DNA of 64,000 bases from Candidatus Nealsonbacteria bacterium. Lineage in GTDB: Bacteria > Patescibacteriota > Minisyncoccia > Minisyncoccales > CAZKCU01. The stretch is taken from positions 381,307-445,306 of the forward strand of contig CP179888.1 in the NCBI GenBank assembly GCA_047456305.1, written 5' to 3'. The stretch's first letter is position 1; each line of letters opens with the position of its first letter. Made by a program: the position numbers and the translations under genes. Of this stretch, positions 7,220 to 54,207 are shown in pieces. Under the pieces are notes generated by a model. The model had not been told where the DNA came from and did no database searches. It saw only the letters and a list, made by a program, of their open reading frames with translations.

Positions 7220-8002
7220 ATGACTGAAGCTGAACTCATTAAAAAAATTCAAGAACTCAAGCAGATTCAACCCAGAAAAGACTGGGTTTTGTTTACTAAA
7301 AGCCAGATTTTAGGAGAAGAACCAAAAATGGACGTGTCCCTATTTTCGTTGGTTGGCAAAATTTTCCCGATGGCGCAAATTTTCTCACCATTTCGTTTCC
7401 TTAATTTTAAAAATTTAAAACCAGTTTTAGTTACCTTAGCTTCTCTATTTATTTTAATATCCGGGGCTTTTATTTTTGCCCAAAATTCTCTACCCGGCGA
7501 TTTACTTTTTCCAGTAAAGAAAATTACTGAAAGGAGCCAGTCAGTTTTTGTCTCTGAGGACAACGTAATAAAATTTGAGTTGGATATTGCAGAGAAACGA
7601 TTAGACGACCTTGCTAAGGTTGCCGAGAAGAACTCAGTGAAGAATTTAGCGCCGGCAATTAACGAATATAAAGAAAGCGTGTCTGATGTGGCAAAGAGTT
7701 TGGCAGTAGAAAATAATAAAGAGGTTGTAAAAGAGATAGTTAGTGGAGTGAAAAAATTAGAAGAGAAAGAGCAGCAAGTGAGAACGCTGGGAGCAGTAAT
7801 AGGAGAAAATGAGGAGTTAGACAAAGCCGTTGCTCAAAAAATGGTAGAAACCTTGGAGATCCTTATTAAGGATTTAGAAGGGAGGTCTTTAACAGAAGAC
7901 CAGCAAGAGGATTTTGCTAAAGCCAAAGAATATTTTGAAGCCGGTGATTATAACCAGGCGCTTATAGAACTTCTGAATTTTGGTCAGGAAAGGGAGGATT
8001 AA
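7220..8002 (+). CDS. anti-sigma-like membrane protein (DUF5667-like)
   Basis: Short N-terminal cytoplasmic segment, one TM helix (PVLVTLASLFILISGAFIF), then a helical extracytoplasmic domain. It lies downstream of the ECF sigma gene. Confidence 0.5.
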   Translation: MTEAELIKKIQELKQIQPRKDWVLFTKSQILGEEPKMDVSLFSLVGKIFPMAQIFSPFRFLNFKNLKPVLVTLASLFILISGAFIFAQNSLPGDLLFPVKKITERSQSVFVSEDNVIKFELDIAEKRLDDLAKVAEKNSVKNLAPAINEYKESVSDVAKSLAVENNKEVVKEIVSGVKKLEEKEQQVRTLGAVIGENEELDKAVAQKMVETLEILIKDLEGRSLTEDQQEDFAKAKEYFEAGDYNQALIELLNFGQERED

Positions 8003-8076
8003 TTTTGCTCAAAATCAATAGATTGAAAATTGGAACGTCGCGAAACTCGTGACTATTACGTAAGGTCGCGAGACAC

Positions 8077-8104
8077 CAAGCACATAACAAAGATTATGTG
8101 CTCG
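8077..8104. repeat. family-B hairpin (GAGCACATAA...TTATGTGCTC)
   Basis: CCAAGCACATAACAAAGATTATGTGCTCGG. Related copies lie at 29306-29332 and, degenerate, inside pgk at 43738-43769. Confidence 0.75.
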
Positions 8105-8158
8105 GATAAATGGTCGGCGCGACAGAAATAAATTATTAATTAATAATTCAGAAAATAA

Positions 8159-10162
8159 ATGAAAAAATTAATGAAAAAGATTGTAGTAAGTATAGTGGGT
8201 TTATCAATGGTACTGATGATGGGGGGAATTGCTCAAGGCGCAACAGTTGAAGAGCTTGAAGATCAAATTGCTGACCTGTTAGCTGAAATAGAAGACTTGC
8301 AAGCTCAAGTAGCTGGGCTTACGGGAGAAGGTGTGGGCGTTTCTTGCACTTTTACTCGTAATCTTTACCCAGGAATGAGTGGCGCCGATGTCAAATGCTT
8401 GCAGGAATACTTAAATGACGCTGGCTACGCTGTAGCTGCTTCAGGTGCTGGCTCTCCTGGTAATGAGACCGAATATTTTGGTCCTCTTACCCAGGCTGCA
8501 GTTGGAGCATGGCAAGACGCTAACGGCGTTGTCTATGGAGCATATAAAGGTTATTTTGGTCCTCTTTCCCAGACTAAATACGACGCGTTAGCTGCCGCAG
8601 CTCCTGCTGAAGAGGAAGAGGAAGAAGAGGAAGCCGTCCTTGAAGGTGGCGCAGGTTCAATTACCGACGCCGACTTTATCTCTTCTCTCAACAACGAGGA
8701 GGTTGGCGAGGGCGCAGAGGATATAGAAGTCGCCGGTCTTGAGATCGAAGCAGATGAAGGTTCGGACATCGAACTTACGGCAGTGCGTCTTGTCTTTGTA
8801 AAGGAAAGCACGGGTGAGGATTCATCCGATGACTTCGAGGACTACGCCGAGGATGTCTCTCTCTGGTTTGACGGAGAGGAAGTTGCTCGCGTTGACGGAG
8901 ATAAATTCGACGACGACAATGACTACTCGCGAACGATCACTCTTGCCTCCGGTGCGGTTATTAGAGCGGACGAGACCGAAGAGCTTGTGGTAGCTGTTTC
9001 GGGAATCGGTAACCTTGACTCTAATGATGCAGGGGAAGAGTGGACCGTTGAGTTTAATAGCATCCGCTTCCGTGACGCGCAAGATGCAGTCATCACGGAT
9101 GCTAACACGGGCGACATTGATGAGGCTACGCGCGAGTTCTCCTTTGAAGTTTTTGCTACTGCAGCAGACATTGATTTGAAGATTCGCGCTGACGATGATG
9201 AAGTCAACGACGCTCACGTGATCAACGTTGATGACGACAATGACACTGATGATGTTGAGGTTCTCTCATTCACCATTGAGATTGAGGGAGATTCCGATGT
9301 AGAGCTTAAGAAGCTTCCAGTAGAGTTTGATAGTGTTAATACTACCGCAACTACATACATCGATGACATGGTATCCAGCGTCCAGCTTTTGATGGATGGT
9401 GACGAGATCGGTAGCGAAAACCTCGCTGCTGACGATGATGACAACCAAACCGTTACCTTCGAGGATCTTGACGTCGTGCTTGAGGCTGGCGAGACATACG
9501 ATTTCCTCGTAACCGCTAACTTCAACGCGCTTGACGGAAGCGACCTTGTTGCCGGTGACACGTTCGCAGCAAATATTGGCTCAACAGAACGAGGCAACAT
9601 TGATGCGGAAGACGAGTCCGGAGAGGATCTTGGGACGGGCGACATGAGCGGTACAGTAACCGGTGGAGCCCACGCGATTTATGACATCAGCTTCACCTTC
9701 GAGTTGGAGAGCATATCATCCTCAATCACTACAGCGCGCGACCCAGGCACCAGTTGTTCAGCTGATACTGCTACCTATGCCATTAAGTTTGAATTAACTG
9801 CTTTTGATGGTGATATAAGTATTGACAGAAGCAGTCAAGAAGATGACACTGATGCGGCTGGCCAAGGTGTTGAGTATGTTGTTACCAATACTACTTCAAG
9901 CTCAGCAACCAGCTCATTGACTTCAACTGCAGGTGATAACCCAGATGTTAGTGGTGCGGCATGGCTTCTTGAAGAAGGTGTGCCTGAAGAGTTCACCCTT
10001 AGTGTGGCAGTTACACCGAATGCTAATCACTTCGCGAAGGTTTACCTTGAATCAATCAACTGGGATTATGATACAGATCAGACCGCAACCTTGTTCTACA
10101 CAGCAGGACTTGGCGAAGAAAAAACATCAACAGATGAGTGTTACTTGAGTGTCACCCCCTAA
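8159..10162 (+). CDS. secreted, highly acidic surface protein with an N-terminal coiled coil and a peptidoglycan-binding domain
   Basis: Signal peptide (MKKLMKKIVVSIVGLSMVLMMGGIAQG), coiled coil (VEELEDQIADLLAEIEDLQAQVAGL), PG_binding_1-like segment (LYPGMSGADVKCLQEYLNDAGY...GPLTQAAV), an E8 run, then about 480 aa rich in D/E/T/S/A. Confidence 0.7.
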   Translation: MKKLMKKIVVSIVGLSMVLMMGGIAQGATVEELEDQIADLLAEIEDLQAQVAGLTGEGVGVSCTFTRNLYPGMSGADVKCLQEYLNDAGYAVAASGAGSPGNETEYFGPLTQAAVGAWQDANGVVYGAYKGYFGPLSQTKYDALAAAAPAEEEEEEEEAVLEGGAGSITDADFISSLNNEEVGEGAEDIEVAGLEIEADEGSDIELTAVRLVFVKESTGEDSSDDFEDYAEDVSLWFDGEEVARVDGDKFDDDNDYSRTITLASGAVIRADETEELVVAVSGIGNLDSNDAGEEWTVEFNSIRFRDAQDAVITDANTGDIDEATREFSFEVFATAADIDLKIRADDDEVNDAHVINVDDDNDTDDVEVLSFTIEIEGDSDVELKKLPVEFDSVNTTATTYIDDMVSSVQLLMDGDEIGSENLAADDDDNQTVTFEDLDVVLEAGETYDFLVTANFNALDGSDLVAGDTFAANIGSTERGNIDAEDESGEDLGTGDMSGTVTGGAHAIYDISFTFELESISSSITTARDPGTSCSADTATYAIKFELTAFDGDISIDRSSQEDDTDAAGQGVEYVVTNTTSSSATSSLTSTAGDNPDVSGAAWLLEEGVPEEFTLSVAVTPNANHFAKVYLESINWDYDTDQTATLFYTAGLGEEKTSTDECYLSVTP

Positions 10163-15698: not shown

Positions 15699-17159
15699 AT
15701 GAAAATTAGAAATTTCACTGATGTTAAGTCATTATTTTTTGATAATAAAACCCTTAAACAAACGATTTTTAAAAATATTAGTTGGCTAATAGTAGCTGAA
15801 GTAATTTCAAAAGGAATTGGATTTTTAGTAGTTGTTTGGTTGGCTCGTCATTTTGGTCCAACAATTTATGGTCAATGGGCATTTGCTTTGAGTTTTGTGG
15901 CTATTTTCGCTGTATTGGCTGATTTTGGATTTTCAACTTTAACTGTAAGAGAAATTGCCAGAGATAAATTTAAAAGTGCAAAGTATATTGACAATATAAT
16001 AGGAATGAAATTAATTTTGGGACTGGTTACTCTTGGCTTGATTGCTTTTGTTATCCAATTTTTAGGAAAAGAACCGGAAATCGTAAAATTAGTCTATTTT
16101 TTAGGAATTTATGTAGTTTTAAATACTTTTGCTACCTTTTTTCACTCAATTTTTAGAGCAAATGAAAAAATGGAATATGAGGCGGCCTCTCGAGTTATTC
16201 AGAGTGTAAGTTTATTGGGATTGGTAGCCTTTTTTATTCTTAATAAAGGCTCTATTTTAACTATAAGTTATGCCTATCTCAGCGCTGTTTTAATTGGAAT
16301 AATTTTTACTTTAATTTTTATCAGGTGCTATTTTTCAAAGTTCTTTTTAAAAATTAATTTTGAAATATGTCAGGAAATTTTTAAAGAAGCCTGGCCAATC
16401 GGTTTAGTTGCTTTAGCCACTACTATTTGTTATTCTTTAGGTTCGGTATTACTTGGCCTTATGAGATCAGATATAGAAGTGGGTTGGTATAATGCTGCTT
16501 CTCGAATAATATTCGCCATTATTCCCTTCTCGAGTATCTTCTTTTTTAGCTTTTTTCCTCAAATGAGTCGAGCTTTCAAAGAAAGCTACGATAATTTAAA
16601 GAATGTCGTTGAAAAATATGCTCTTTTAATGTTCGGAGTAGGATTACCTCTGGGAATTGGCGGCTTTATAGTCGCTCCAGAGTTAATAAAATTTTTATAT
16701 GGACAGCCATATCTTGAAACCACATTGCCTTTCCAGATATTAGTTTGGAATTTGACAATAATTTTTATGATCACTCTCTATGGAAATTCTTTATGGGCCC
16801 TTGATAAACAAAAAGATTTTTTAAAAGCAGTTTTAATCGGAGCAACATTCAACATTGCTGCAAATTTAGTTTTAATACCAAAATATGGCATAATTGGAGC
16901 GGCAATTGCTGCCCTTTTAACAGAAATTGTAATATTTATAAAAGTATCTATTGAATTTAATAAAACAATCAAAATAAATTTGAAAAATATTCTTTTACCT
17001 ACTGGTGTTTCTTCCATTTCTATGGCCTTAGTTTTAATCGGAGTAAAAGAAATAGGAATTATGAATCCAATTTTATTAATTCTATGTGGTGGAATAATTT
17101 ATATTTTAATACTTTATTTCTATATAAGAAAAAATCTTGGAACGATGATAAAAATTTAA
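15699..17159 (+). CDS. polysaccharide flippase (Wzx, MOP superfamily)
   Basis: 486 aa with about 12-14 TM helices, and it sits in a glycan cluster. Confidence 0.75.
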   Translation: MKIRNFTDVKSLFFDNKTLKQTIFKNISWLIVAEVISKGIGFLVVVWLARHFGPTIYGQWAFALSFVAIFAVLADFGFSTLTVREIARDKFKSAKYIDNIIGMKLILGLVTLGLIAFVIQFLGKEPEIVKLVYFLGIYVVLNTFATFFHSIFRANEKMEYEAASRVIQSVSLLGLVAFFILNKGSILTISYAYLSAVLIGIIFTLIFIRCYFSKFFLKINFEICQEIFKEAWPIGLVALATTICYSLGSVLLGLMRSDIEVGWYNAASRIIFAIIPFSSIFFFSFFPQMSRAFKESYDNLKNVVEKYALLMFGVGLPLGIGGFIVAPELIKFLYGQPYLETTLPFQILVWNLTIIFMITLYGNSLWALDKQKDFLKAVLIGATFNIAANLVLIPKYGIIGAAIAALLTEIVIFIKVSIEFNKTIKINLKNILLPTGVSSISMALVLIGVKEIGIMNPILLILCGGIIYILILYFYIRKNLGTMIKI

Positions 17160-17177
17160 ATTAAATAAACAAGTTCT

Positions 17178-17495
17178 ATGGATCAACAACCTTTCACATT
17201 TATTAAACGTATCCGCGAGTTGCGCAAAATATCAGGAGGTTCTCTTAATTGCGGTTGGATGTGTGATGAAATTGTATTTTTATTATATAGTTTAGTAAAA
17301 GTATATAAACCAGAGCTGGTAATCCAAACAGGGCATTTATGGGGTAAATCTATTTGTATTGTGTTAGATGCTTTAACAAATGGATTTCTAATGGGTGATT
17401 ATTCGATTGAAGACCGAGAACAAAACGGCGATCTTAAATTCTTAGAGTTTCTTAAAAAAAATAAACCCGCCCCCCCCAAAAAAAATGTAAGGTGA
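17178..17495 (+). CDS. class I SAM-dependent methyltransferase, N-terminal fragment (frame broken at a C8A8 tract)
   Basis: Contains a motif-I-like strand, ELVIQTGHLWGKSICIVL. The ORF ends just after the homopolymer at 17470-17485. Confidence 0.6.
   Translation: MDQQPFTFIKRIRELRKISGGSLNCGWMCDEIVFLLYSLVKVYKPELVIQTGHLWGKSICIVLDALTNGFLMGDYSIEDREQNGDLKFLEFLKKNKPAPPKKNVR
17470..17485 (+). repeat. homopolymer C8 followed by A8 at the junction of two ORF fragments
   Basis: GCCCCCCCCAAAAAAAATG. Adding one nt (or removing two) fuses 17178..17495 with 17492..18004. Confidence 0.9.
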
Positions 17496-18004
17496 TGAGT
17501 ATCGATCCGGATCCCTCTGGGGTCCCACATATTGAAGAAAGTATTAGATATCTTATTTCTCATTATGATAACTTCGAATTTAAGAAGATGAAAAGTTCAG
17601 AATTTTTTGACAAATATAGAAATCAACTATCTGTCGACTTCAAAGGAAAAAGAGTATTGGGTATTATCGATGGCGACCATTCAGCATATGGGTGCATTCG
17701 AGACCTTTACGATTTCTATAGTATTGGAGCGGGCTTAATACTCGTAGATGATACTGTTTGGTTACCTCATATTGGTAGAATAGCTCGATTATTTGCGAAA
17801 CGGAAAGGATATGAATTTTTTGATTTCTCGCTTTATAACGGTATGGGTATATTGTATAAAAAACCTACCATTACTATCGGCACTTCTTCTGTATTTGACA
17901 AAATAATTTATTGGTTATGGTTTTTTGGGAACAATACAAATTTTCTCCACACTACTGTCAAATTTGTCCGTAAAGTAAAATCAATTATCAAAAAGTATTT
18001 TTAA
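17492..18004 (+). CDS. class I SAM-dependent methyltransferase, C-terminal fragment
   Basis: VMSIDPDP (beta-2/acidic motif), then VLGIIDGDHSAYGCIRDLYDFYSIGAGLILVDD (Methyltransf_24-like). This frame is open upstream to 17465. Confidence 0.6.
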   Translation: MMSIDPDPSGVPHIEESIRYLISHYDNFEFKKMKSSEFFDKYRNQLSVDFKGKRVLGIIDGDHSAYGCIRDLYDFYSIGAGLILVDDTVWLPHIGRIARLFAKRKGYEFFDFSLYNGMGILYKKPTITIGTSSVFDKIIYWLWFFGNNTNFLHTTVKFVRKVKSIIKKYF

Positions 18005-18128
18005 AAACTTATTATGATAAGTAAATCAAATAAAATTTGTCTGGTAACAACAACTATTAGTAAAGGCGATTTTCTTGATTATTATTTAGAGAAATTTATG
18101 TGGGCGAATGTGCCTTAAGTAAAATATT

Positions 18129-18842
18129 ATGAAGATCATAAAACGTCTTACATATAGCCGAAAATTTAGAAGATTAGCTCGATTCCTTCATCTTAGCAAT
18201 ATTCTCAGGAAATTATATTACTATTTCTTGCATCCACCAGATGGGATACTTACATTAGAAGTCAGTGGGATAACTGCTCAATTCTATATTCGGACACCTG
18301 GGGAATTAAGGGTGCTAGAATCAATGGGAGGAGAACAGCATATTTTAAAGCTATTAATTCCTAGACTCCGCCCAGGAGATGTCGTCTACGATATTGGAGG
18401 ATATGTTGGTCTCTATACTATTCTTCTAGCAAAAGTAGTAGGGCAAAAAGGTCAGGTGATTGCTTTTGAACCCCAGAGTCAAAATTTTGAGCATCTTTTA
18501 GATAACTTAAAGTTGAACCGTTTAACAAACGTTCGGGTTTTTCAAAAAGCCTTAGGCGATCGAGAAGAAAAAAGAAAGCTTTACTTAGGTGAGGGTACTT
18601 GGACTGCTAGTTTAGTTCGACCATTCAAAACAGAGACAGATTACACATTGGTAGAGCTTGTGAAAGGGGACCAATTCGTAAAGGCTGAGAATTTGTCTAT
18701 ACCAAAGGCGGTGAAGATTGATGTCGGGGGATACGAATATAATATGATTAAGGGGTTGCGTCGTACCCTAGCGCATCCCGCTTGTGAAATAGTATGCTGT
18801 GAGGTTCACCCCCCCCCTGTTACCAGCCGGAATTGCTTCTGA
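18129..18842 (+). CDS. FkbM-family methyltransferase, truncated by a frameshift at a C9 tract
   Basis: VVYDIGGYVGLYTILLAKVVGQKGQVIAFEPQSQNFEHLLDNLKLNRLTNVRVFQKALG. After C9 (18809-18817) the +1 frame continues with LLPAGIASDAIPGLLKSFGFKRVEIYP... and reaches TAA at 18967-18969. Confidence 0.75.
   Translation: MKIIKRLTYSRKFRRLARFLHLSNILRKLYYYFLHPPDGILTLEVSGITAQFYIRTPGELRVLESMGGEQHILKLLIPRLRPGDVVYDIGGYVGLYTILLAKVVGQKGQVIAFEPQSQNFEHLLDNLKLNRLTNVRVFQKALGDREEKRKLYLGEGTWTASLVRPFKTETDYTLVELVKGDQFVKAENLSIPKAVKIDVGGYEYNMIKGLRRTLAHPACEIVCCEVHPPPVTSRNCF
18809..18817 (+). repeat. homopolymer C9 inside the FkbM methyltransferase gene
   Basis: CACCCCCCCCCTG. Loss of one C restores a protein of about 279 aa. 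Confidence 0.9.
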
Positions 18843-19007
18843 TGCGATTCCCGGTTTGTTAAAATCATTCGGCTTTAAACGGGTCGAAATTTATCCTCGT
18901 GAGAGCGAGCACCATATAGTTGCTTATAAAACAGCTCTAACTAAAGAATTAAGAAATTCATCGAATTAACAAAGAGAGAGGATTAAAATGAAACCAAAAA
19001 ATAATCT

Positions 19008-20120
19008 ATGAAACAATGTTTAGTGCTCACAACCATTAATATACCTTATTTACTCCGCGATTATGCGAAAAATTTTGTAAAATATAAACACCAAAAAGAC
19101 GTTGAAATATTGGTTATTGGAGATATTAAGACACCGGCTAAAGTTAATTCTTTAATAGATGAGGTCAGGAGTTTGGGAGTATCGGCACACTATATTAATA
19201 TTTCCACTCAAAAGAATTGGTTGAGTAAATTTCCTACCTTAGATAATATTATTCCTTATAACTCAGATAATCGGCGCAATATTGGCTACTTGATGGCAGT
19301 TGAGCGAGGAGCTGGCATTATCGTTATCATTGATGATGATAACTTCGTGGATCCAAAGCAAGATTTCTTTAAGGATCATTCGATAGTTGGTCAAGTTGTC
19401 GAATTTGATGCAGTTAGTTCCGAAAGTGGCTGGTTTAATGTTTGCTCAATGTTAAAAGTAAAGCCAGATCGGGTTATTTTTCCTCGTGGTTTTCCTTATT
19501 CTAAGCGATGGAAAGGTGGAGATATTAGACAGCGGAGAACCCGCGGACGCGTAGTTATTAATGAAGGACTTTGGTTCAATGACCCGGACATTGATTCAAT
19601 TACAAGGTTGACAGAAGATGTAAAGGTAACAGGGATTATTAAAGATCGGTTGGTGCTGGATCAAGGTACTTTTGCTCCAATTAATACCCAAAATACTGCA
19701 TTCCACCGGGATATCTTACCATGTGCCTATTTTTTACTTATGGGTAAAAACATACGAGGCCTGAAGATTGACCGCTACGGCGATATTTGGTTTGGATTGT
19801 TCGCTAAAAAAATTATTGACCATTTGAATGACTACGTAAGTTTTGGAAAACCCTTTTCAATTCACCGGCGTAATCAACATAATCTTTTTAAAGATCTCCA
19901 GCAAGAACTTTGGGCAATAATCTTAACTGATACCTTGGTTGAATTCTTAGAATCTATAAACCTTAAAAGCTCCACTTATAACGACTGTTATCATGAGTTA
20001 GCTGATCAACTCGAGAAGTTTGCTTCAAATAACAAGAATTTGGATAAAGAAGTCCAGTCCTACTTTAAAGAGATTTCATCAGCTATGAGAGTTTGGTTGA
20101 GTGTTTGTGCATCTCTTTAG
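19008..20120 (+). CDS. putative glycosyltransferase (RGP/GT75-like, DDD motif)
   Basis: CLVLTTINIPYLL... and GIIVIIDDDNFV resemble the reversibly-glycosylated-polypeptide family. The assignment is tentative. Confidence 0.45.
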   Translation: MKQCLVLTTINIPYLLRDYAKNFVKYKHQKDVEILVIGDIKTPAKVNSLIDEVRSLGVSAHYINISTQKNWLSKFPTLDNIIPYNSDNRRNIGYLMAVERGAGIIVIIDDDNFVDPKQDFFKDHSIVGQVVEFDAVSSESGWFNVCSMLKVKPDRVIFPRGFPYSKRWKGGDIRQRRTRGRVVINEGLWFNDPDIDSITRLTEDVKVTGIIKDRLVLDQGTFAPINTQNTAFHRDILPCAYFLLMGKNIRGLKIDRYGDIWFGLFAKKIIDHLNDYVSFGKPFSIHRRNQHNLFKDLQQELWAIILTDTLVEFLESINLKSSTYNDCYHELADQLEKFASNNKNLDKEVQSYFKEISSAMRVWLSVCASL

Positions 20121-20166
20121 CAATAAAATTCAAGATTAATATCTCTCACTTAAATTAAGCGAATTT

Positions 20167-21390
20167 ATGAAGATTTTACTTGTACAACCATATGCACTTG
20201 GACCTGGTCATTATGAAGCTTACACCCAGAGATTGTGTGCGGGCTTTTGCAAATTAAGTGTGGATACCACTTTAATAACTGCTGCTGGAACAAGAGGAGG
20301 TTGGGAAAATGAATTGCCACTTCGGTCCCTCCAAGCAATGAAAGCTAATTCATCTTTTCTTTTCACTTTAGATGCTGGTAAAAAATTACAGGTAATCGAT
20401 AGAGTAATGGGACGAATACGCTTTCTCTGGACAAGTTGGGTTGTTGAAAGAGTAGCTTTTACTCATTTTGTTAAAGATGACTACGACATTTTACATTTTA
20501 TTGACGCTGAACCAATAACCCTATCGATACTTTTTTTGTTATTTGGTAAGCCCCAAAATGTTTTTTTGACCATTCCAGCACCTTATACCATTCCTGCTCG
20601 TGGAAAATCTATTTATCGATATACTTATGACCCCCTTAGAAGAGCCATGGCTCGTTGGCTATTTAAATATATCAAGCCCATTACTCATAGCCAACATGTT
20701 AAAAAATCTCTTTTTAATCTTAAAATTGTATCTAAGGTGGAAGTGCCGGTTATTCCTTGGGGAATCGATACTCCCTCCTTAACTTGCAACCGTTTAGAAG
20801 CTCGACAAAAATTAGGAATCAAAGAAGATTCTCCCATTTTAGGTTTTTTTGGTTACCTCCTTCCCCAAAAAGGATTTGATCTGGTCCTTAAAACCTGGCC
20901 CTCTTTAAACCAAAAATGCCTTCTTTTAGCTTTTGTTCATTCGGATAGACCTGGTGGGGAAAGCAAGATTAGAAATCGAGTCCAGGAAGCAGGTATTAAT
21001 AATCGCACTCTTATTAAATTTGGTTATGCTTCAGAAAAGGAGTTAGCCCTCCATATTCGGGCCTGCGATGGTATTCTCTTGCCTTATCAAAAAACCTTTC
21101 AAGGAGAAAGTGGCATTATGGCTTTGGCCCTTTCTCACCAAATTCCCTTAATTGCTGCTAATACCGGTAGAATAGGGGAGGTGGTTTCTCAAAACAATCT
21201 TGGGATTATATTTAAACCAGATTCTTCCTTGTCATTTAAGGAGGGGATAGATAAATTTCTTAATTTTAAAAAAGAAGAAATTAATCAAATAAAAAAGAAT
21301 ATTAACTTGTATACTAAATTGTATAGTTGGAAAGAAATTGCCAATCAGCACTTAATGGCCTACCAGAAAGATAAAAAATATGAGCGATGA
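20167..21390 (+). CDS. glycosyltransferase family 4 (GT-B)
   Basis: The C-terminal half resembles glycos_transf_1 (ILGFFGYLLPQKGFDL..., LLPYQKTFQGESGIMALALSHQIPLIA). Confidence 0.7.
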   Translation: MKILLVQPYALGPGHYEAYTQRLCAGFCKLSVDTTLITAAGTRGGWENELPLRSLQAMKANSSFLFTLDAGKKLQVIDRVMGRIRFLWTSWVVERVAFTHFVKDDYDILHFIDAEPITLSILFLLFGKPQNVFLTIPAPYTIPARGKSIYRYTYDPLRRAMARWLFKYIKPITHSQHVKKSLFNLKIVSKVEVPVIPWGIDTPSLTCNRLEARQKLGIKEDSPILGFFGYLLPQKGFDLVLKTWPSLNQKCLLLAFVHSDRPGGESKIRNRVQEAGINNRTLIKFGYASEKELALHIRACDGILLPYQKTFQGESGIMALALSHQIPLIAANTGRIGEVVSQNNLGIIFKPDSSLSFKEGIDKFLNFKKEEINQIKKNINLYTKLYSWKEIANQHLMAYQKDKKYER

Positions 21391-22645
21391 GAGAGAAAAA
21401 TTAAAAGTTTTAGTGTGCGCCTATGCCTGCCAACCAGGAGGTTCTTTAAAATGGGTGGGGCTTGGAGAGTTGATTTTGGGTTGGAACATTGTTAACCAAC
21501 TTGGTCGGTTTCATCGAATTTGGGTTTTGACCCATTCTCAGAATCGTGCTGGTATAGAAGCTGCACTTCAAAAAAAAATTCTCTCTAATGTCCATTTTTA
21601 TTATATTGATTTACCCGCTTTATTCAGACCTTTATTAAATTTTGAAGGAGGTATTCACCTCTATGCTTATTTGTGGCAAATAAAAGCATATTTTGTATCC
21701 CGTAAATTACATCAAAAGCTTCATTTTGATGTTTTTCACCATGTTACTTATGCCAATGACTGGATGGCTTCTTTCATTGGTGCTTTATTGCCCATTCCCT
21801 ACATTAGAGGACCAGGGGGAGGGGCTCATTGTGTTCCAAAAGGTTTTTTTCAAGAATTCTCCTTTCGAGAGCATTTCTGGGATCTGCTTCGTGCAATTGG
21901 ACAATGGCTCTTTCGGCATGATATATTTTTCATATTGGGTCAGCGGCGTGCCCGGGCGATTATGGTTTGTAGCCGTGAATCACTGGGGGCAATACCTGAA
22001 AAGTGGCGGCAAAAAACCCATCTTTTCCCAGTAAACGGAATAACGAGAAGAGATTTGACCCTCCTTGCTCCAAGAAAAATAAACAGTAATAAATTCCGCG
22101 TTTTTTCTGTTGGCAAATTAATCCGAATTAAAGCCTTTAACTTAGCAATAAAAGCTTTTAAAATCTTTGCCGATAAAGTTCCAGAAGCTGAATTAACTAT
22201 TATTGGTGATGGGCCAGAACTTACACGATTGAAAAATTTATCTTCCAAATTGGACCTTGAGAAAAAAGTTCATTTTCTAGGTTGGTTACCTCGGGAGGAA
22301 TTATTATTTAAAATGCCTTCATTCGATGTATTTCTTTTTCCCGGCTTGGGTGGAACGGTAGTAATGGAAGCAATGGCCGCTGGTAAACCAGTGATCTGCC
22401 TTGATATCGCGAGTCCTGGGATAAATGTTACAAATGACTGTGGTATAAAAATCAAACCTTATTCTCCTGACCAGGTAATCAAAAAAATGGCAGAAGCTTT
22501 AGAACGTTTATATCGAGACAAAGAATTAAGGCTTCGATTAGGAAATGCAGCCAGAATCCGGGTAGAGAGAGAGTATCGCTGGGATCGTTTAGGCGAACGC
22601 CTACTAAAAATCTATCAAGAAGTTCTAAGAAAAAATAAAGCATGA
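21380..22645 (+). CDS. glycosyltransferase family 4 (GT-B)
   Basis: GDGPELTRLKNLSSKLDLEKKVHFLGWLPREEL...VMEAMAAGKPVICLD is a typical group-1 GT signature. Confidence 0.8.
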   Translation: MSDEREKLKVLVCAYACQPGGSLKWVGLGELILGWNIVNQLGRFHRIWVLTHSQNRAGIEAALQKKILSNVHFYYIDLPALFRPLLNFEGGIHLYAYLWQIKAYFVSRKLHQKLHFDVFHHVTYANDWMASFIGALLPIPYIRGPGGGAHCVPKGFFQEFSFREHFWDLLRAIGQWLFRHDIFFILGQRRARAIMVCSRESLGAIPEKWRQKTHLFPVNGITRRDLTLLAPRKINSNKFRVFSVGKLIRIKAFNLAIKAFKIFADKVPEAELTIIGDGPELTRLKNLSSKLDLEKKVHFLGWLPREELLFKMPSFDVFLFPGLGGTVVMEAMAAGKPVICLDIASPGINVTNDCGIKIKPYSPDQVIKKMAEALERLYRDKELRLRLGNAARIRVEREYRWDRLGERLLKIYQEVLRKNKA

Positions 22646-24021
22646 AATCTGTTACTTTAACTACTTCAATTAAAGACCAACCCACAATAAAAAATAAGAT
22701 TTTAGACACAGATCAAAAGTTGGCGCCTGGTTTATTGCTAAGCCTAATACTTTGGCTTATGCTTTGGGTGGGATATAATATTGGAATCGAACGAGCAATT
22801 TCTCCTGGTTTTCCACATAGCACACTCGATTTAATTCATAGGGTTCGCGCCTTTCTGCCCCTTTCGTCTGCTTATTTAGCCATTATCTTACTATTGGGAC
22901 GGCATCCTCTTTCCATAAGGCTCTTTAGAGGTCCTTTGGGCCTGCTGGCACTCTACACTATTTTTGGTATTACTTCGTCAATACTTTCAAGGGAACCGTT
23001 TACGGCTTTATCCTGGGCTATTTTGTATGGTGCTGTTTTGATAGTGGTCTGGGCAATTTCGGTTGGTTCAAATTCGTTGTCTCGTCTTTCCTCCGTCATT
23101 AATCTTAACTGGGCTATCGTTGCTGTCGTGGGAGTTTCCTTACTTGTGTTTTTTCTATTTCAGCCAGGCGTAATTTCATCGCTAATCGCTGGTAATTTTC
23201 CGGTTGGAAGACCTTATGGGGAATTAGCAGGAGAGGAAAAGGAAATAATGGGAATGCCAGGAACCCGTCCCACCGGTCTTGGAAGATATGCTGGGGTAGT
23301 AGCAATTGTTTTCTTGGCCAGACTTTTATTTCCTAAAAAGAGGTCAAAGTCTCTTTGGTTTTTCTTATTCCTCTTTTTTCTATTTTTACTTATTTTTTCC
23401 CAGGCCCGGACAGCCATTTTAGCTTTTCTTGCTGGAGGGCTTTTGATTCTTTGGTTGAAGACTCGGTCAAAACTCCTCTTAACCTTCGGAATAATCTTTG
23501 GTCTCTTTCTCCTTGGTCTGACCGGATTTTACCAGGCTTTTTATACCTATTTAATAGAAAAGATGCCTTTTGTTTTTACTTTAAGCGGTCGAACTATTGG
23601 CGTCTGGCCCGAGGCTTGGCAGTTTTTTTTGAGTTCGCCATTTTTAGGTTGGGGATTTCATGCCGATAGAATTTTTTTAGAAGGCCAGCATATCCACAAC
23701 GCCGTTCTTCATGCACTAGTTCAAACAGGATTAATTGGCACTATTTTTTTTGTCTCCGCCTTTATTTGGGCCTGGATCATTTTATTTCGGCTTCTTAAAC
23801 AGCCACGATTTCAAAAAACGGAAAAGCCTCGTTTAATTGAGATAGCCGGGGTGCTGGCTTTTTTTACAGTCAGAAGTATTACCGAATCAACCGGAGCATT
23901 TTTTGGGGCGGACTGGATTTTGCTGGCTCCTCTTTTGGCCTATATTACAATTCTAAATCAGAGAAATTTTTATTTTAAGTCAGTGAAAGGACAATATATT
24001 AAGAAAAAAGAAGTTGCTTAA
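22642..24021 (+). CDS. O-antigen polymerase/ligase (Wzy)-family membrane protein
   Basis: Polytopic membrane protein with the Wzy_C-like motif GQHIHNAVLHALVQTGLIGTIFF. Confidence 0.75.
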   Translation: MKSVTLTTSIKDQPTIKNKILDTDQKLAPGLLLSLILWLMLWVGYNIGIERAISPGFPHSTLDLIHRVRAFLPLSSAYLAIILLLGRHPLSIRLFRGPLGLLALYTIFGITSSILSREPFTALSWAILYGAVLIVVWAISVGSNSLSRLSSVINLNWAIVAVVGVSLLVFFLFQPGVISSLIAGNFPVGRPYGELAGEEKEIMGMPGTRPTGLGRYAGVVAIVFLARLLFPKKRSKSLWFFLFLFFLFLLIFSQARTAILAFLAGGLLILWLKTRSKLLLTFGIIFGLFLLGLTGFYQAFYTYLIEKMPFVFTLSGRTIGVWPEAWQFFLSSPFLGWGFHADRIFLEGQHIHNAVLHALVQTGLIGTIFFVSAFIWAWIILFRLLKQPRFQKTEKPRLIEIAGVLAFFTVRSITESTGAFFGADWILLAPLLAYITILNQRNFYFKSVKGQYIKKKEVA

Positions 24022-24024
24022 TCT

Positions 24025-24810
24025 ATGGTGAAAAATAACTTCAAACAAATTCCATCTATTCAGATTTTAGGCAGCAGGGTCCATATGGTTCAAATTCCAG
24101 AAGTAGTGGAGCTCATAGCTCATTGGATTGAAAAGGAGTCTCAAAAATACCATTGGATTGTTGTTACTGGTATGCATGGGGTGATGGAAGCTTACAGAGA
24201 TGTAAAATTCAAAGCCATTCTTAACTCAGCTGATCTTTTTGTTCCAGACGGGATTTCTCTAATTTGGATAGCTCGTTATCGAGGTTTTCCCCTTAAAAAA
24301 AGAGTATCTGGAGCTGACTTAATGTGGGAATATTTTAAACTTGCCAACAAAAAAGGTTATCGGAATTTTTTCTATGGCGATACCAAAGAGACGCTTCAGG
24401 AGTTAGCTAAAAAGCTGTTAATAGATTTCCCCGAGCTTAAAATAGTAGGTCTTTATTCTCCTCCATTTCGGGCTTTAACTCCAGAAGAAGATGCAGAGAT
24501 TGTCAGGAAAATCAACGAAAAAAAACCAGATATTCTTTGGGTGGCTCTTGGTTTACCGGAGCAGGAACGTTGGATATTTGAACACCGAGACAAATTGGAA
24601 ATCCCTGTAGTAATAGGCGTTGGGGCAGCTTTTAAGTTTTTAAGTGGTAAAGTAAAAAGAGCTCCGGCCTGGTTAGGAGATTTGGGATTAGAATGGTTGT
24701 GGAGATTTTTTCACGAACCCCGGAAACTTTGGCGTCGAGTTTTTTTAGACATACCTGCTTTTATTTTTTTAGTTTTACTTGAATTGATTGGATTTAAAAC
24801 TAAAAAATGA
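24025..24810 (+). CDS. WecG/TagA/CpsF-family glycosyltransferase (GT26)
   Basis: ADLFVPDGISLIWIARYRG..., PDILWVALGLPEQERWI, VGAAFKFLSGKVKRAP. Confidence 0.85.
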   Translation: MVKNNFKQIPSIQILGSRVHMVQIPEVVELIAHWIEKESQKYHWIVVTGMHGVMEAYRDVKFKAILNSADLFVPDGISLIWIARYRGFPLKKRVSGADLMWEYFKLANKKGYRNFFYGDTKETLQELAKKLLIDFPELKIVGLYSPPFRALTPEEDAEIVRKINEKKPDILWVALGLPEQERWIFEHRDKLEIPVVIGVGAAFKFLSGKVKRAPAWLGDLGLEWLWRFFHEPRKLWRRVFLDIPAFIFLVLLELIGFKTKK

Positions 24811-24824
24811 TAAAATAAAATAAT

Positions 24825-25796
24825 ATGGAAAAAACAGAAAAAATTTTAGTTACGGGTGCAGGTGGTTTTATTGGCCATTATTTAGTTAGATTTTTAAAGA
24901 AAAAAGGATATTGGGTAAGAGGAGTTGATATTAAATATCCAGAATTCTCTTCAAAAGATGAAGCTGATGAATTTTTATTATTAGATTTAAGATTCTTAGA
25001 TAATTGCCTTAAAGCGACTAAAGGAATAGATGAAGTTTATGCCTTAGCTGCCAATATGGGCGGAATTGGATTTATTACCTTTCACACCTCAGACGTTCTT
25101 TATGATAATGTTTGCATTAATGCTAACACAGCCGAGGCTTCCAAGAGAAATGGAGTTAAAAGATTACTCTTTTCTTCATCAGCTTGTATTTATCCAACAT
25201 TCAAACAAGAAAATCCAGACGTAACAGCGTTGAAAGAAAGCGATGCTTATCCGGCTTTTCCTGATAATGAATATGGATGGGAGAAATTATTTTCAGAAAG
25301 ATTATATAAAAGTTACTCTGATTTTTATGGGGTGAGAATAACTAGATACCATAATATCTATGGGCCAGAAGGAACTTTCGAAGGAGGAAGAGAAAAAGCG
25401 CCGGCTGCACTCTGTCGGAAAATAGCTTTAGTCAAAGACGGAGGAGAGATTGAGGTGTGGGGAGATGGAAATCAGACGCGATCATTCTATTATATAGATG
25501 ATTGCTTAGAAGGAACTTATAAATTAATGAGGTCAAATTATAAAGAACCTCTAAATGTTGGTTCTGACAGATTAATAACTATTAATGATTTTATAGATTT
25601 AATTGCTAATATTGCGGGCAAGAAAATCAAAAAGAGACACAATTTAACTAAACCCCAAGGAGTGAGGGGTAGAAATTCTGATAATACTCTTTGTAAAAAG
25701 ATTCTTAATTGGAAATCTAAGATTCCCCTTGAAGAGGGTTTAAAAAGAACCTACCAATGGATTGAAAAAGAACTAAGAAAGCAGGGAAGAATTTAA
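24825..25796 (+). CDS. NAD-dependent epimerase, GDP-mannose 3,5-epimerase-like
   Basis: VTGAGGFIGHYL. A long stretch (AANMGGIGFI...GVKRLLFSSSACIYP...LKESDAYPAFPDNEYGWEKL...RYHNIYGPEGTFEGGREKAPAALCRK) closely follows the GME family pattern. Confidence 0.8.
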   Translation: MEKTEKILVTGAGGFIGHYLVRFLKKKGYWVRGVDIKYPEFSSKDEADEFLLLDLRFLDNCLKATKGIDEVYALAANMGGIGFITFHTSDVLYDNVCINANTAEASKRNGVKRLLFSSSACIYPTFKQENPDVTALKESDAYPAFPDNEYGWEKLFSERLYKSYSDFYGVRITRYHNIYGPEGTFEGGREKAPAALCRKIALVKDGGEIEVWGDGNQTRSFYYIDDCLEGTYKLMRSNYKEPLNVGSDRLITINDFIDLIANIAGKKIKKRHNLTKPQGVRGRNSDNTLCKKILNWKSKIPLEEGLKRTYQWIEKELRKQGRI

Positions 25797-25797
25797 A

Positions 25798-27120
25798 ATG
25801 CAAAAAAAGATTTTTTTAAAATTCGTTCTTATAATTGGAGATGTTTTTTTAATGTATGGGGCTTTGCTTTTGACTCTAGCCTTAAGATACAGAGATTTTT
25901 CTTTCCTGCCAGGTTCCCAAACTAAAATTTTTCTTTTTCATTTTTCTTTTATTTATCTATTTTGGCTTTTTTTTCTCTTTCTCCTAGATTTTTATGAAAT
26001 TCCGCCCTTCAAAAAAGTTTTCGATTTTTTCTCTAATTTAATAATTTTCCTTTTTTTGGCTGGCACCTTTGGAATAATTTATTTTTATCTCCGGCCTCAG
26101 ATGATTATTACTCCAAAGACCATTTTAGTTTTAGATGTTTTAATATTTGGGCTTTTTCTTTGCGGTTGGCGATATGTTTTTAGTTGGATTTTAAAACTTC
26201 AGAATTTTAGAGAAAAAATGGTAATAATTGGCTTTCAGCCAGAACTTAAAGATATATCATCAAACCTACTTTACCAAAATGGGTATGAAATTGTAGCGTC
26301 TTTTGACCCCGATTCTTTTGAGATTTCTAAACTCAAAGAAATAATAGAGAAAGAAAATATTAATTCAATAGTTTTTGCTTTAGATTTTCACAAAAATGAA
26401 GAATTAGTACAGCAGATTTTTCAAAATTTACCTCTTAAATTGAACTATATTAGCTTCGTCGATTTTTATGAGTCATTAACTAAAAAAGTACCTATTGAAG
26501 GTATCAGCGAAATCTGGTTTTTAGAGAATCTCTCCCGGGCGGAAAGAAAAATTGATGAAGTCCTAAAACGGAGTTTCGATATTATATTTTCCTTAATTGG
26601 ACTTTTAATTACTGCTATTTTGTTTCCCTTCATTGCTTTAGCGATAAAATTAGATTCTCCTGGTTCTATTTTTTATATTCAAAAAAGAGTTGGTAAAGAT
26701 AGAAAAATTTTTACTTTATATAAATTTCGAACTATGAAAGAAAGCCCAAATCAATACAAAGAACCCTGGAGGGAGAGGGATCCCAGCCAGATTACCAGAG
26801 TCGGTAAGGTATTACGAAAAACTAATTTAGATGAATTTCCTCAATTTTGGAGTATTTTAAAAGGAGATTTGAGCTTTATTGGACCAAGGGCAGAATGGGA
26901 AAAATTGGCTAGGGTTTTTGAAAAAGAAATTCCTTTTTATTCTCAACGTTGTCTAATAAGACCTGGCTTTACTGGTTGGGCCCAAATTAATTTCCCCCCT
27001 TCTACCTCAATTGAAGAAGCAAAAGAGAAATTTAAATATGACCTTTACTATATTAAAAATCGCTCCTTCTTTTTGGATTTGGGAATTATTTTAAAAACGA
27101 TTAGAATCATTTTTAAATAG
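25798..27120 (+). CDS. polyprenyl-phosphate glycosyl-1-phosphate transferase (WbaP/EpsB-type bacterial sugar transferase)
   Basis: KRSFDIIFSLIGLLIT...LDSPGSIFYIQKRVGKDRKIFTLYKFRTM...DEFPQFWSILKGDLSFIGPRAE. Confidence 0.9.
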   Translation: MQKKIFLKFVLIIGDVFLMYGALLLTLALRYRDFSFLPGSQTKIFLFHFSFIYLFWLFFLFLLDFYEIPPFKKVFDFFSNLIIFLFLAGTFGIIYFYLRPQMIITPKTILVLDVLIFGLFLCGWRYVFSWILKLQNFREKMVIIGFQPELKDISSNLLYQNGYEIVASFDPDSFEISKLKEIIEKENINSIVFALDFHKNEELVQQIFQNLPLKLNYISFVDFYESLTKKVPIEGISEIWFLENLSRAERKIDEVLKRSFDIIFSLIGLLITAILFPFIALAIKLDSPGSIFYIQKRVGKDRKIFTLYKFRTMKESPNQYKEPWRERDPSQITRVGKVLRKTNLDEFPQFWSILKGDLSFIGPRAEWEKLARVFEKEIPFYSQRCLIRPGFTGWAQINFPPSTSIEEAKEKFKYDLYYIKNRSFFLDLGIILKTIRIIFK

Positions 27121-27162
27121 ACATTCCCCGAAGGTAAATTATTTGCTATAATTAGAAAATAC

Positions 27163-27876
27163 ATGAACCAACAAGAAAACATTCAAACAGAATATGAGGA
27201 GGAAATTGATTTAATGGATTATATTAAAGTGATATTTAAAAGGAAGTGGTTGATTTTAGTTATATTTTTAGTGGCTGTAATTGCAGCTGGAGTTTTTAGT
27301 TATTTCGCCCCCAAAATTTATAAAATTAGTGCTTCTTTTGAGATAGGGATAATAGGAGATAAAATAATAGAAGAACCTAACCAGGTAATAGGAAAAATTA
27401 ACGGTGATGCCTATGGGATTTTAGTGAGAGAAAAATTAGGGATATTAGAGTACCCAGAAGTAAAAGCTGAGAATCCAAAAGGGACCAATTTGGTAATAAC
27501 TGAAACAGAATCTATTAATCCGGAGTTGACTAAAAACGTTTTAAATGAAATTAATAATTTAATCATAGAAGACCACCAAAGAGAAATTAACCTCCGAAAA
27601 GAACTTTTAGAAAAAGAGATTCAAGGATTGCAGGAAAGTATTAATTATTTAATTTCCAAAAACCAGGAAATAGTCCTTCTTCAATTAAAGCTGCATGACT
27701 TACAAAAACAAAAAGAGAATTTTCAACCTACCCAGGTAATTTTAAAAGCTACGGTTTCTAAAAAACCGATAAAACCAAAACTGGCCTTAAATATCATTAT
27801 AGCCGGGGTATTGGGAATTTTCGTGGGACTATTTTTTGCTTTTGGAAAAGAATGGTGGGAGAAGAATAGAACGTAA
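27163..27876 (+). CDS. Wzz-like polysaccharide chain-length determinant
   Basis: EIDLMDYIKVIFKRKWLILVIF... (TM1), a coiled-coil middle part, and a C-terminal TM helix (LNIIIAGVLGIFVGLFFAF). Confidence 0.75.
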   Translation: MNQQENIQTEYEEEIDLMDYIKVIFKRKWLILVIFLVAVIAAGVFSYFAPKIYKISASFEIGIIGDKIIEEPNQVIGKINGDAYGILVREKLGILEYPEVKAENPKGTNLVITETESINPELTKNVLNEINNLIIEDHQREINLRKELLEKEIQGLQESINYLISKNQEIVLLQLKLHDLQKQKENFQPTQVILKATVSKKPIKPKLALNIIIAGVLGIFVGLFFAFGKEWWEKNRT

Positions 27877-29890: not shown

Positions 29891-29920
29891 TAAACCCCGT
29901 TAGAGACTAACGGGGTTTAC
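29891..29920. terminator. palindrome TAAACCCCGTTAG-AGA-CTAACGGGGTTTA between convergent genes
   Basis: Perfect hairpin shared by the hpf 3' end and the stop region of the minus-strand ATPase gene. The same arm sequence recurs at 34338-34403. Confidence 0.6.
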
Positions 29921-32150: not shown

Positions 32151-33281
32151 TTATTTTTCCCTCTCCTTTTTTCTTTTAATCATTTCAACAAAAGCCTCGA
32201 TTCTGTTATCTATAGCTGTTTCAGATGTATTCTCATCAAAGGAAAGAGCAAGAAAGGGGATATTATATTTTTGGGAAATTGTCGGCAAAAACATCTGGGC
32301 AATGTTTTCTGGCATACAGCCTCGGGGTTGGATAAGAATAAGGCCATCATAGCCTTCTTTTCCGTAAAGGATAGCTTTTCCAATTGATTGTTGGTCCTCG
32401 CCTCCACCCGGGACCTTTAAATATTGAGGAGCAATCATATGCTTTATCCACCAACGGGGAAAATTTAGTTTAACTGAAGCGAGCAACCATCCTGCTTCAG
32501 ATGTTTTTTGGCTTACAAGTACACCTCTTTCCCCAAGTTTAGATTCTATATTTTTATTGACAAAAGGTTCAAGGACGCAAAAAGCTTCCCCAAGTATCCC
32601 TACCTTTAAAATATCATGAGGGTCTTTCTTATCTCTTTTTATAATTTTAAACATTTCATTTATTTTTAAATTTAGCAAACTCATTTCTTTTAATGTTTGA
32701 GCTTTATCTACTTCTTTGAGAGCTTCTTCCATTACTTTTGAACTTTCACCCTTTCTTAACTCATAGGGTCTTGTCTTTCTGGCTAAAATTTCTATTTTTT
32801 CTATAACTTTTAATTTTCTCCAAAAAAAAGGAATGGGTTTTAAGCTTTTTTTTAGTGATATTTTGGGATTTGCTTTTTTTAGAGTTTTTATTGCATCTTG
32901 AGGGTTACTTGCAGTAATTATTCTAAATTTATATCCAATCTTTTTTAATGTTATTCTTTGGAGTTTAGAATAATAGCGAAGCCTGCAGAGACTTCCTTTC
33001 CCACCAGCCATAATTATGACCGTTGCTCCTTTTTCAAGGCACTCTATCATATTACCAAGAGTGAGCTTATATGGATAACAGGCGTCTGTTGGAGAATATT
33101 TTACCCCAAGTTTTTCCGTGTGTTTGGAGATTGGAGGCGGAATTAAAACATTAAAACCAAGCTTTTCAAGAAATGCTTTACCAGCAATCCAGGTATATCC
33201 GCAATTGGGAAAGGTGATAATTTCTTTCATAGTGTTGATTATTTCTGAATTTATATTTAATTTGCGAAGCAAATTGCCCAC
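32151..33281 (-). CDS. acyl-CoA dehydratase activase-related protein (DUF2229/HGD-D-like subunit)
   Basis: ITFPNCGYTW...SPTDACYPYKLTLGNMIECLEKGA...GSLCRLRYY...LSFDENTSETAIDNRIEAFVEMI. The probable true start is ATG 33230 (MKEIITF), because the first 17 codons of the ORF are a repeat element. Confidence 0.7.
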   Translation of the reverse strand: MGNLLRKLNINSEIINTMKEIITFPNCGYTWIAGKAFLEKLGFNVLIPPPISKHTEKLGVKYSPTDACYPYKLTLGNMIECLEKGATVIIMAGGKGSLCRLRYYSKLQRITLKKIGYKFRIITASNPQDAIKTLKKANPKISLKKSLKPIPFFWRKLKVIEKIEILARKTRPYELRKGESSKVMEEALKEVDKAQTLKEMSLLNLKINEMFKIIKRDKKDPHDILKVGILGEAFCVLEPFVNKNIESKLGERGVLVSQKTSEAGWLLASVKLNFPRWWIKHMIAPQYLKVPGGGEDQQSIGKAILYGKEGYDGLILIQPRGCMPENIAQMFLPTISQKYNIPFLALSFDENTSETAIDNRIEAFVEMIKRKKEREK

Positions 33282-33317
33282 TATTCACACACAGCAGTGA
33301 GGGCAGCTGACGGTTCC
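33262..33317 (-). repeat. family-C/D element (long form) between two operon genes
   Basis: Minus strand reads GGAACCGTCAGCTGCCCTCACTGCTGTGTGTGAATAGTGGGCAATTTGCTTCGCAAA. It contains the 22-nt core GCTGTGTGYGAAYAGTGGGCAA. Confidence 0.75.
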
Positions 33318-33327
33318 TTTTAAGGAT

Positions 33328-46457: not shown

Positions 46458-46460
46458 GAT

Positions 46461-49219: not shown

Positions 49220-49222
49220 TAG

Positions 49223-49294: not shown

Positions 49295-49354
49295 AAGAAT
49301 TTTATAGGGGTTTACTTTTTTAAAAATTATGTTAAATTAAAAAAGAAAAGGACG

Positions 49355-54150: not shown

Positions 54151-54207
54151 AGATATAGCGAATAACAGGGTGGGGCTATGTCCAGAATACGAGTAGTTAA
54201 GCAAGAA

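Follow-up and report, generated by a model that had tools for sequence, protein, structure and literature searches.

In a 64-kb window of a Candidatus Nealsonbacteria metagenome-assembled genome (MAG; the window is the whole 64,000-nucleotide stretch analysed here, from a contig of 639,534 bp), two neighboring methyltransferase genes of a glycan cluster, hereafter MT1 and MT2, are broken by frameshifts. The window contains two long C runs, 1.3 kb apart, and each lies exactly at the frameshift of one of these genes. The reading we favor is that MT1 and MT2 each carry a slipped-strand phase-variable switch on glycan methylation and that the consensus sequence shows both in the OFF state; we regard this reading as evenly poised between true and false.

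MT1 is a 275-amino-acid (aa) methyltransferase-like gene that a C8A8 tract separates into the open reading frames (ORFs) 17178..17495 and 17492..18004 (frames 0 and −1). The region 17460-17495 reads AATAAACCCGCCCCCCCCAAAAAAAATGTAAGGTGA, and the zero-frame codons at the tract are GCC CCC CCC AAA AAA AAT, which include an A_AAA_AAT heptamer. Three 8-nt homopolymers occupy 32 nt at 17454-17485, in the order A8, 8 nt, C8, A8; the upstream A8 is kept in the nearest MT1 relative, and an extra A there would meet a TAA and so not rescue the frame. The features of MT1 are as follows.

17178..17495, plus strand: N-terminal ORF of MT1, 105 aa, ending in KPAPPKKNVR and the stop; hypothetical protein ACKKMS_02175 at NCBI
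17470..17477, plus strand: poly-C tract C8, predicted to be ON at C6, C9, or C12
17478..17485, plus strand: poly-A tract A8, abutting C8; A9 would also bring the frame back
17465..18004, plus strand: C-terminal reading frame of MT1; hypothetical protein ACKKMS_02180, 169 aa, at NCBI

The N-terminal ORF holds LVIQTGHLWG, with LVIQTGHLWGKS as the motif-I strand. The C-terminal frame is open back to 17465, following a TAA at 17462-17464; its earliest starts are GTG 17492 and ATG 17495, and the 170-aa ORF 17492..18004 holds SIDPDP, IIDGDHSAYG, and LILVDD. Adding one C or one A yields a continuous protein of 275 aa (...KNKPAPPQKKCKVMSIDPDP...), and removing two C also restores the frame (274-275 aa). 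Across tract lengths, C6, C9, and C12 give full-length products of 274 to 276 aa, and the other lengths give products of 103 to 106 aa. The coordinates, motifs, tract, open frame, and one-base repair given for MT1 in the preliminary description of this DNA were all correct on recheck.

A search of 5.8 billion clusters with repaired MT1 returned 23 relatives, nearly all of them single ORFs of 210 to 350 aa; a 24th match was the window's own C-terminal piece. Repaired MT1 could be aligned end to end, across the break, with 22 intact single-ORF relatives, which bears out the earlier view that one gene has been divided into the two ORFs. At the break, the family alignment shows an invariant P97, a variable linker of 5 to 7 residues, and then a conserved (P/C)K-x-(I/M)-S-(I/V)-D-P strand. 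The family is small, with 48 representatives at E ≤ 1e-30 among 1.84 billion. Q50, G52, H53, L54, W55, G56, K57, and S58 are invariant and T51 nearly so; S108, D110, P111, D165, G166, H168, and D191-D192 are also invariant, and D167 nearly so. These residues sit where motif I, the acidic end of strand β2, and metal-binding acids are expected, and by analogy we infer corresponding roles for them. In the family (P0001-P0023), the invariant QxGHLWGKS, in which x is nearly always T, replaces the usual ExGxGxG; a Cys after DGDH is also invariant, and some members are labeled 'cephalosporin hydroxylase' by JGI.

MT1 scored 14.2 bits against Pfam Methyltransf_24, under the cut-off of 26.3; no NCBIfam match was obtained, and a sequence search of the Protein Data Bank (PDB) gave only E > 0.5. 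Among the 23 family members, 18 match Methyltransf_24 weakly (best 3.9e-6) and four match RMNT_CmcI. The AlphaFold (AF2) model of the intact relative P0001, which is 85% identical to MT1, has a pLDDT of 89.5 and a pTM of 0.84, and Foldseek matched it against the PDB with probability 1.0 and TM 0.5-0.68 to Mg-dependent class I O-methyltransferases (OMTs), namely, norbelladine OMT, CCoAOMT, COMT, SafC, and the mycobacterial sugar OMT MeT1 of M. hassiacum. Between helix 83-95 and strand 103-107 of this model lies a variable surface loop, which the MT1 tract encodes. The predicted structure thus gives good support for MT1 as a class I methyltransferase at the level of fold and motifs, but not as a member of a curated family; the earlier label of class I S-adenosylmethionine methyltransferase stands on the former and falls short of the curated-family threshold.

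MT2, which the preliminary description had missed, is the next gene after MT1 (18129..18969). It belongs to the FkbM family of methyltransferases and is broken by C9.

18129..18842, plus strand: truncated ORF of MT2, 237 aa, ending in HPPPVTSRNCF and the stop
18809..18817, plus strand: poly-C tract C9; the homologous tract in a related lineage (L045, see below) is C8
18799..18969, plus strand: C-terminal reading frame of MT2, LLPAGIASDAIPGLLKSFGFKRVEIYPRESEHHIVAYK..., conserved in full-length relatives

A 279-aa protein results when one C is removed; hundreds of relatives of 270 to 285 aa align with 96% of it, and the alignment passes through an invariant E-x-H-P-x-L-L-P motif. Repaired MT2 scored 52.3 bits against PF05050 (cut-off 22.7), and its in-frame allele P0145 scored 100.4 bits against TIGR01444 (cut-off 37.7). 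Lengths of C8 and C11 give full-length products (279 and 280 aa), and other lengths give 236 to 245 aa. The tract lies at 82% of the gene and covers the invariant P228 and the variable residue following it. The C9 product lacks the conserved last ~50 residues and is incomplete as encoded; because the missing segment holds the invariant L231, P232, G248, and K267, the short forms are probably inactive rather than alternative isoforms. A stem-loop at 18822-18859 (ACCAGCCGGAAUUGC...GCGAUUCCCGGUUUGU) starts 5 nt past C9 and has an energy z of −2.0, with 6 of 200 shuffles folding equally; it is identical in L045 and therefore offers no covariation test.

Both genes thus carry an intragenic G/C homopolymer at which one-base changes toggle between full-length and truncated products. 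In the proposed mechanism, slipped-strand mispairing during replication would shift the poly-C length by one base, and in MT1 the adjoining poly-A could slip too. Read-through would occur at C9 (or A9), C6, and C12 in MT1 and at C8 and C11 in MT2, and the consensus would represent the OFF states, in which C8 leaves MT1 as a 105-aa stub and C9 leaves MT2 as a 237-aa product without its conserved C-terminal part. Because the MT1 tract is located in a variable loop and the MT2 tract on P228 and a variable residue, the ON lengths would cost at most one extra residue. Two such switches could give four methylated or unmethylated glycan combinations in one population, and altered glycan methylation may change the surface presented to phages or to the host cell to which episymbionts attach. 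That switching would be reversible and of high frequency is an inference, as are the activities of the two enzymes and the ecological role.

Rarity of the tracts and their counterparts in relatives

C8 at 17470 and C9 at 18809 are the only two C/G runs of at least 7 nt in the window. As background, we used the run-length spectrum of 239 kb of sequence (23 AT-rich loci plus the remainder of the window), because dinucleotide-preserving shuffles were uninformative. G/C runs of 4, 5, 6, 7, and at least 8 nt numbered 263, 41, 9, 2, and 0, respectively, so that each further base lowers the count roughly five-fold. Nor do the tracts follow from the amino acids that they encode, because the codons concerned are minority codons (CCC, 21% of Pro; CAC, 30% of His; CTG, 6% of Leu). 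At the MT2 site, relatives of 64 to 68% identity read CAT CCT/CCC ACT TTG and the tract allele reads CAC CCC CCC CTG, a difference of four to five changes, all to C, three of which are synonymous and towards rarer codons. At the MT1 site, the nearest relative reads CCT TTC TTT ACA AAA and the window reads CCC GCC CCC CCC AAA AAA AA. By this evidence, each tract is a construction specific to its lineage and not a by-product of the protein sequence.

The 90% cluster of truncated MT2 has one other member, a 279-aa protein from the Logan assembly of SRR30965930, whose DNA is L045. L045 and the window differ by 11 substitutions in the 604 bp aligned (98.2% identity), and the sole indel is the tract itself, which is C8 and in frame in L045 (8822-8829) and C9 and out of frame in the window. 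Two alleles of the tract therefore occur in two lineages. The genes downstream of MT2 are 82% identical to those of L045, and the first 200 bp of MT2 are visibly mosaic in the alignment. Because identity is 98.2% inside the segment against 82% in the flanking genes, and because the 5′ end is mosaic, the tract-bearing segment appears to have been exchanged recently between distinct lineages. Its GC content is 42%, against 36% for the window.

The surrounding locus is listed below.

15699..27876, plus strand: glycan cluster, all on one strand, in the order Wzx, MT1, MT2, RGP-like glycosyltransferase, two GT1, Wzy, WecG/TagA, epimerase, Bac_transf, Wzz
18014..18119, plus strand: 5′ remnant of an RGP-family glycosyltransferase gene, 34 codons, MISKSNKICLVTTTISKGDFLDYYLEKFMWANVP and a stop; MISKSNKICLVTTTISKGDFLDYY... 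against MITKTNKICLVTTTINDGNFLDYY... in L046
18329..18932, plus strand: MT2 segment 98.2% identical to L045 8342-8944 in the nucleotide alignment, including the tract

The Wzx flippase (15699-17159) lies upstream of MT1, and Bac_transf is the initiating transferase; together with the glycosyltransferases, Wzy, WecG, the epimerase, and Wzz, they confirm the glycan-cluster setting proposed earlier. The RGP-family remnant resembles L046:1757-2899 and sits between MT1 and MT2, where it is the scar of a rearrangement. Gene content of the cluster varies: MT1 and the RGP-like glycosyltransferase are missing from L045, and MT2 is missing from L001; the upstream genes of L045 are heptose-pathway-like (GHMP kinase, SIS, and NTP-transferase/phosphatase). 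Switches of this kind are usually housed in glycan clusters reshuffled by recombination, as this one is.

Two other candidate tracts were rejected. In the initiating transferase gene, C6 (window 26994) and C7 (L045 14578) differ by a T/C substitution and not by a change in length. A G7 at L046 7184-7190, near the 5′ end of a GT1 gene, encodes an in-frame Gly-Gly and is not evidence of a switch. The homologous sites in the window and L045 are interrupted G runs of unequal length, with an in-frame indel.

Alternative explanations for the frame breaks

Several observations weigh against switching. The dinucleotide-preserving shuffles averaged 1.33 C8/G8 matches in 64 kb, and the observed three overlapping matches were reached in 16 of 100; these shuffles are lenient, overestimating long G/C runs compared with real AT-rich sequence. 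The earlier statement that a C8 is unexpected in an AT-rich genome accordingly agrees with the 239-kb background, which has no run of 8 nt or more, but does not reach significance against the shuffles. The nearest MT1 relative, L001/L002 (85% aa and 87% nt identity), reads AAACCTTTCTTTACAAAATGT and has no homopolymer, and no second MT1 tract length was found among the relatives. Comparison of tract length in relatives had been proposed as a check, and a homopolymer-free, invariant relative had been named as grounds for refutation; for MT1, this is what the comparison returned, but the tractless relative is weak counter-evidence because it belongs to a different lineage (87% nt identity). A strain nearer to MT1 than L001 was found neither among ~15 billion proteins nor in exact cluster look-ups of all pieces; it was also absent from family-profile scans of genome contigs and from the metagenome-contig matches listed, which did not include L001 either. 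For MT2, C8 and C9 come from two lineages, and a single fixed mutation or a single miscall could account for the difference. Local decay would likewise fit three damaged elements in a row (MT1, the glycosyltransferase remnant, and MT2). The assembly of the source as one contig of 639,534 bp suggests a long-read assembly, for which homopolymer indels are the typical residual error. Finally, C8 to C9 is near the short end of fast-switching tracts in Campylobacter or Neisseria. The phase-variable reading first offered for MT1 is thus partly supported, gaining a second tract at MT2 and the in-frame C8 allele in L045 but no length variation at MT1 itself.

If the homopolymers were miscalled, MT1 would really carry C9 or A9 and MT2 would carry C8; the tracts would remain, but neither gene would be broken and nothing would be off. 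We consider this unlikely. Homopolymer indels dominate the residual errors of long-read assemblies, and a single contig of this size is suggestive of one; in addition, both breaks lie at the two longest G/C homopolymers of the window, neither gene has another lesion, L045 carries the MT2 tract in frame, and G/C homopolymers may behave unlike A/T ones on some platforms. However, all 32 A/T runs of 8 to 9 nt inside genes keep the frame, intact ORFs span 87% of the window, and no other unprogrammed frameshift occurs in the 64 kb. The sole other frame change is the programmed site of prfB (CTT TGA C, 49418-49424).

49355-50429: prfB (release factor 2), with a classic programmed +1 frameshift

Homopolymers therefore seem to have been called dependably in this assembly, and general homopolymer error was ruled out as a blanket explanation by the 32 in-frame runs. 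The errors would also have to be opposite in sign, MT1 being one base short and MT2 one base over. A similarly low probability attaches to recent, plain pseudogenes, in which the cluster would be decaying after rearrangement, with frameshifts at the most mutable sites and no adaptive or reversible switching. The damage to three consecutive elements in a space of 1.8 kb, namely MT1, the glycosyltransferase gene left as a remnant (18014-18119), and MT2, fits this account, as does the dispensability of the methyltransferases as accessories, since L001 lacks one and L045 the other; genomes of the Candidate Phyla Radiation (CPR) are also reduced. Such decay would not account for two C runs of at least 8 nt in a 36% GC genome or for the construction of the MT2 tract by several changes to C, synonymous ones included, and L045, another lineage, has the tract-bearing allele of MT2 in intact form. 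Moreover, neither gene has extra stops or indels, and past the MT1 break the reading frame remains open for 170 codons in DNA of 33% GC. The ratio of nonsynonymous to synonymous substitution rates (dN/dS) for MT1 against L001 is 0.27 before the break and 0.12 after it, the latter ruling out MT1 as an old pseudogene; dN/dS for MT2 ahead of the tract against L045 is 0.29.

Two further accounts would leave the DNA as it is. Recoding would make expression of MT1 and MT2 constitutive, if weak, with MT1 read through by RNA-polymerase slippage on A8/C8 or by −1 ribosomal frameshifting and MT2 by +1 slippage on CCC_CCC_CCU, and we consider it very unlikely. A −1 shift on the A_AAA_AAT heptamer of MT1 would reach the second frame, the MT2 hairpin (z = −2.0) stands 5 nt past C9, and poly(A) slippage reportedly rescues frameshifted genes in AT-rich endosymbionts, as Tamas et al. 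are said to have described in 2008. However, no significant structure lies 3′ of the MT1 site (z = +0.24), where no −1 stimulator was found, and the MT2 hairpin would favor −1, yet C9 needs +1. A8 is also below the length for efficient slippage, ~9 or more, and the frameshift is not conserved, every relative examined being one uninterrupted ORF. It is harder still to credit that MT1 is a functional split gene whose 105-aa and 169-aa products, made by termination-reinitiation, assemble into an active enzyme. The stop TGA 17493-17495 does overlap ATG 17495-17497 (GTGATG), the break falls in the surface loop of the P0001 model, and a residue that is Ile, Leu, or Phe in relatives is Met in the window (KVMSIDP against KVISIDP). 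This I-to-M change is nevertheless one conservative substitution, no MT1 relative is split, and a split here would part strand β1 from the remaining Rossmann sheet; it would explain neither the tract nor MT2.

Other features of the window

The A/T runs of the window comprise 59 A7, 22 A8, 17 T8, and one A9 (21570), with none longer, and those in genes are in frame. This sharp stop at 8 nt suggests selection against runs of 9 nt or more, perhaps avoiding slippage, rather than a basecalling ceiling. Genes for tRNA-Gly(CCC) and tRNA-Thr(CGT) lie just upstream of prfB (49149-49295).

A BcrAD/BadFG-type ATPase gene of the CoA-enzyme activase family (29907-32123, minus strand) is split by an intein that holds a LAGLIDADG homing-endonuclease domain and is followed by two DUF2229/HGD-D genes (32151-34239, minus strand). 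The bacterial class A RNase P RNA (46460-46889, minus strand) is 430 nt long against a model of 367 positions and hence contains insertions. Two GC-rich islands stand out from the 36% overall, 8001-10000 (47.7%) and 54001-58000 (~44%), and may be acquired DNA; the former holds a 667-aa PG-binding/Cna_B-like surface protein, and the latter holds aconitase and isocitrate/isopropylmalate dehydrogenase genes. A TrwB/TraG-like type IV coupling-protein ATPase (41852-43477) with a C-terminal treble-clef zinc finger adjoins the housekeeping genes pgk, DHH phosphoesterase, and RNase H.

Comparison with known switches and significance

Homopolymer phase variation of surface glycans is textbook knowledge in host-adapted pathogens, including Campylobacter, Helicobacter, Neisseria, and Haemophilus. 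The closest precedent for the putative MT1 and MT2 switches, by analogy, is cj1426 of Campylobacter jejuni, a poly-G phase-variable methyltransferase gene of the capsule locus responsible for heptose 6-O-methylation (PMC8437040), which stands beside cj1421 and cj1422 as one of several independently switching capsule modification genes (PMC8437040; review PMC8355987). As in MT1 and MT2, an intragenic G/C homopolymer occurs in a methyltransferase gene of a surface-polysaccharide cluster in an AT-rich genome, several modification genes adjoin in one glycan cluster, and the heptose-pathway-like upstream genes of L045 offer a further parallel. By contrast, switching has been shown experimentally in C. 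jejuni and is proposed for MT1 and MT2; the enzyme families differ, and we claim no homology. C. jejuni is a host-adapted pathogen, whereas MT1 and MT2 belong to an uncultured environmental CPR bacterium. Their tracts are 8 to 9 nt long, one in the middle of its gene and the other toward the 3′ end, and one of them is a composite, C8A8.

Slipped-strand changes in poly-C or poly-G also turn surface-glycan glycosyltransferases ON and OFF in Helicobacter pylori (futA/futB) and Neisseria (lgtA/pgtA). The pgtA switch is described in PMC2193922. These genes share with MT1 and MT2 a coding homopolymer that governs, or here would govern, surface-glycan structure; they differ in that they encode glycosyltransferases, belong to mucosal pathogens, and have longer tracts that mostly lie close to the 5′ end, and strain surveys of them show many tract lengths, whereas two lengths of one tract are known for MT1 and MT2. 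Homopolymer-mediated C-terminal switching is reported for Helicobacter canadensis (PMC2823697). MT2 is comparable in that changes in tract length would swap the C-terminus (279 against 237-245 aa) rather than abolish translation early, but its lost segment carries invariant family residues (L231, P232, G248, and K267). In the insect endosymbionts Buchnera and Blochmannia, poly(A) transcriptional slippage rescues frameshifted genes, typically on tracts of 9 to 10 or more A. The likeness lies in a small AT-rich genome and, for MT1, in a frameshift at an A run that would be correctable in RNA; the A run of MT1 is only 8 nt, however, and the unusual element is the poly-C. The only case of repeat-driven hypervariation in a CPR genome found in the literature searched was the PTD-repeat gene of a Gracilibacterium, in which an in-frame 9-mer array varies the protein sequence (PMC6851277). 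It differs from an ON/OFF switch that works by frameshifting at a homopolymer, as proposed for MT1 and MT2.

No report of homopolymer phase variation in CPR/Patescibacteria was found in full-text literature (8 million texts). The mechanism proposed here is of a known kind, and what would be new, if it is real, is its occurrence in a phylum for which no earlier report was found. The wider claim would be that CPR/Patescibacteria, which are ultra-small episymbionts known from metagenomes alone, use classical homopolymer contingency loci, with two independent poly-C tracts, combinatorial control of glycan methylation, and a cassette exchanged between ~82%-identical lineages, as the first simple sequence repeat phase variation of the radiation; we put this claim forward tentatively, at slightly less than an even chance. 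A consequence for annotation is that the pieces of MT1 and MT2 are now listed at NCBI as three separate proteins of the MAG (XOB41508-XOB41510). If the tracts switch, a 0.64-Mb genome with minimal regulation would diversify its surface by stochastic genetic switches, which would point to phage or host-attachment pressure on the CPR cell surface and would give a concrete handle on what selects the envelope of uncultured episymbionts, whether phages or host recognition.

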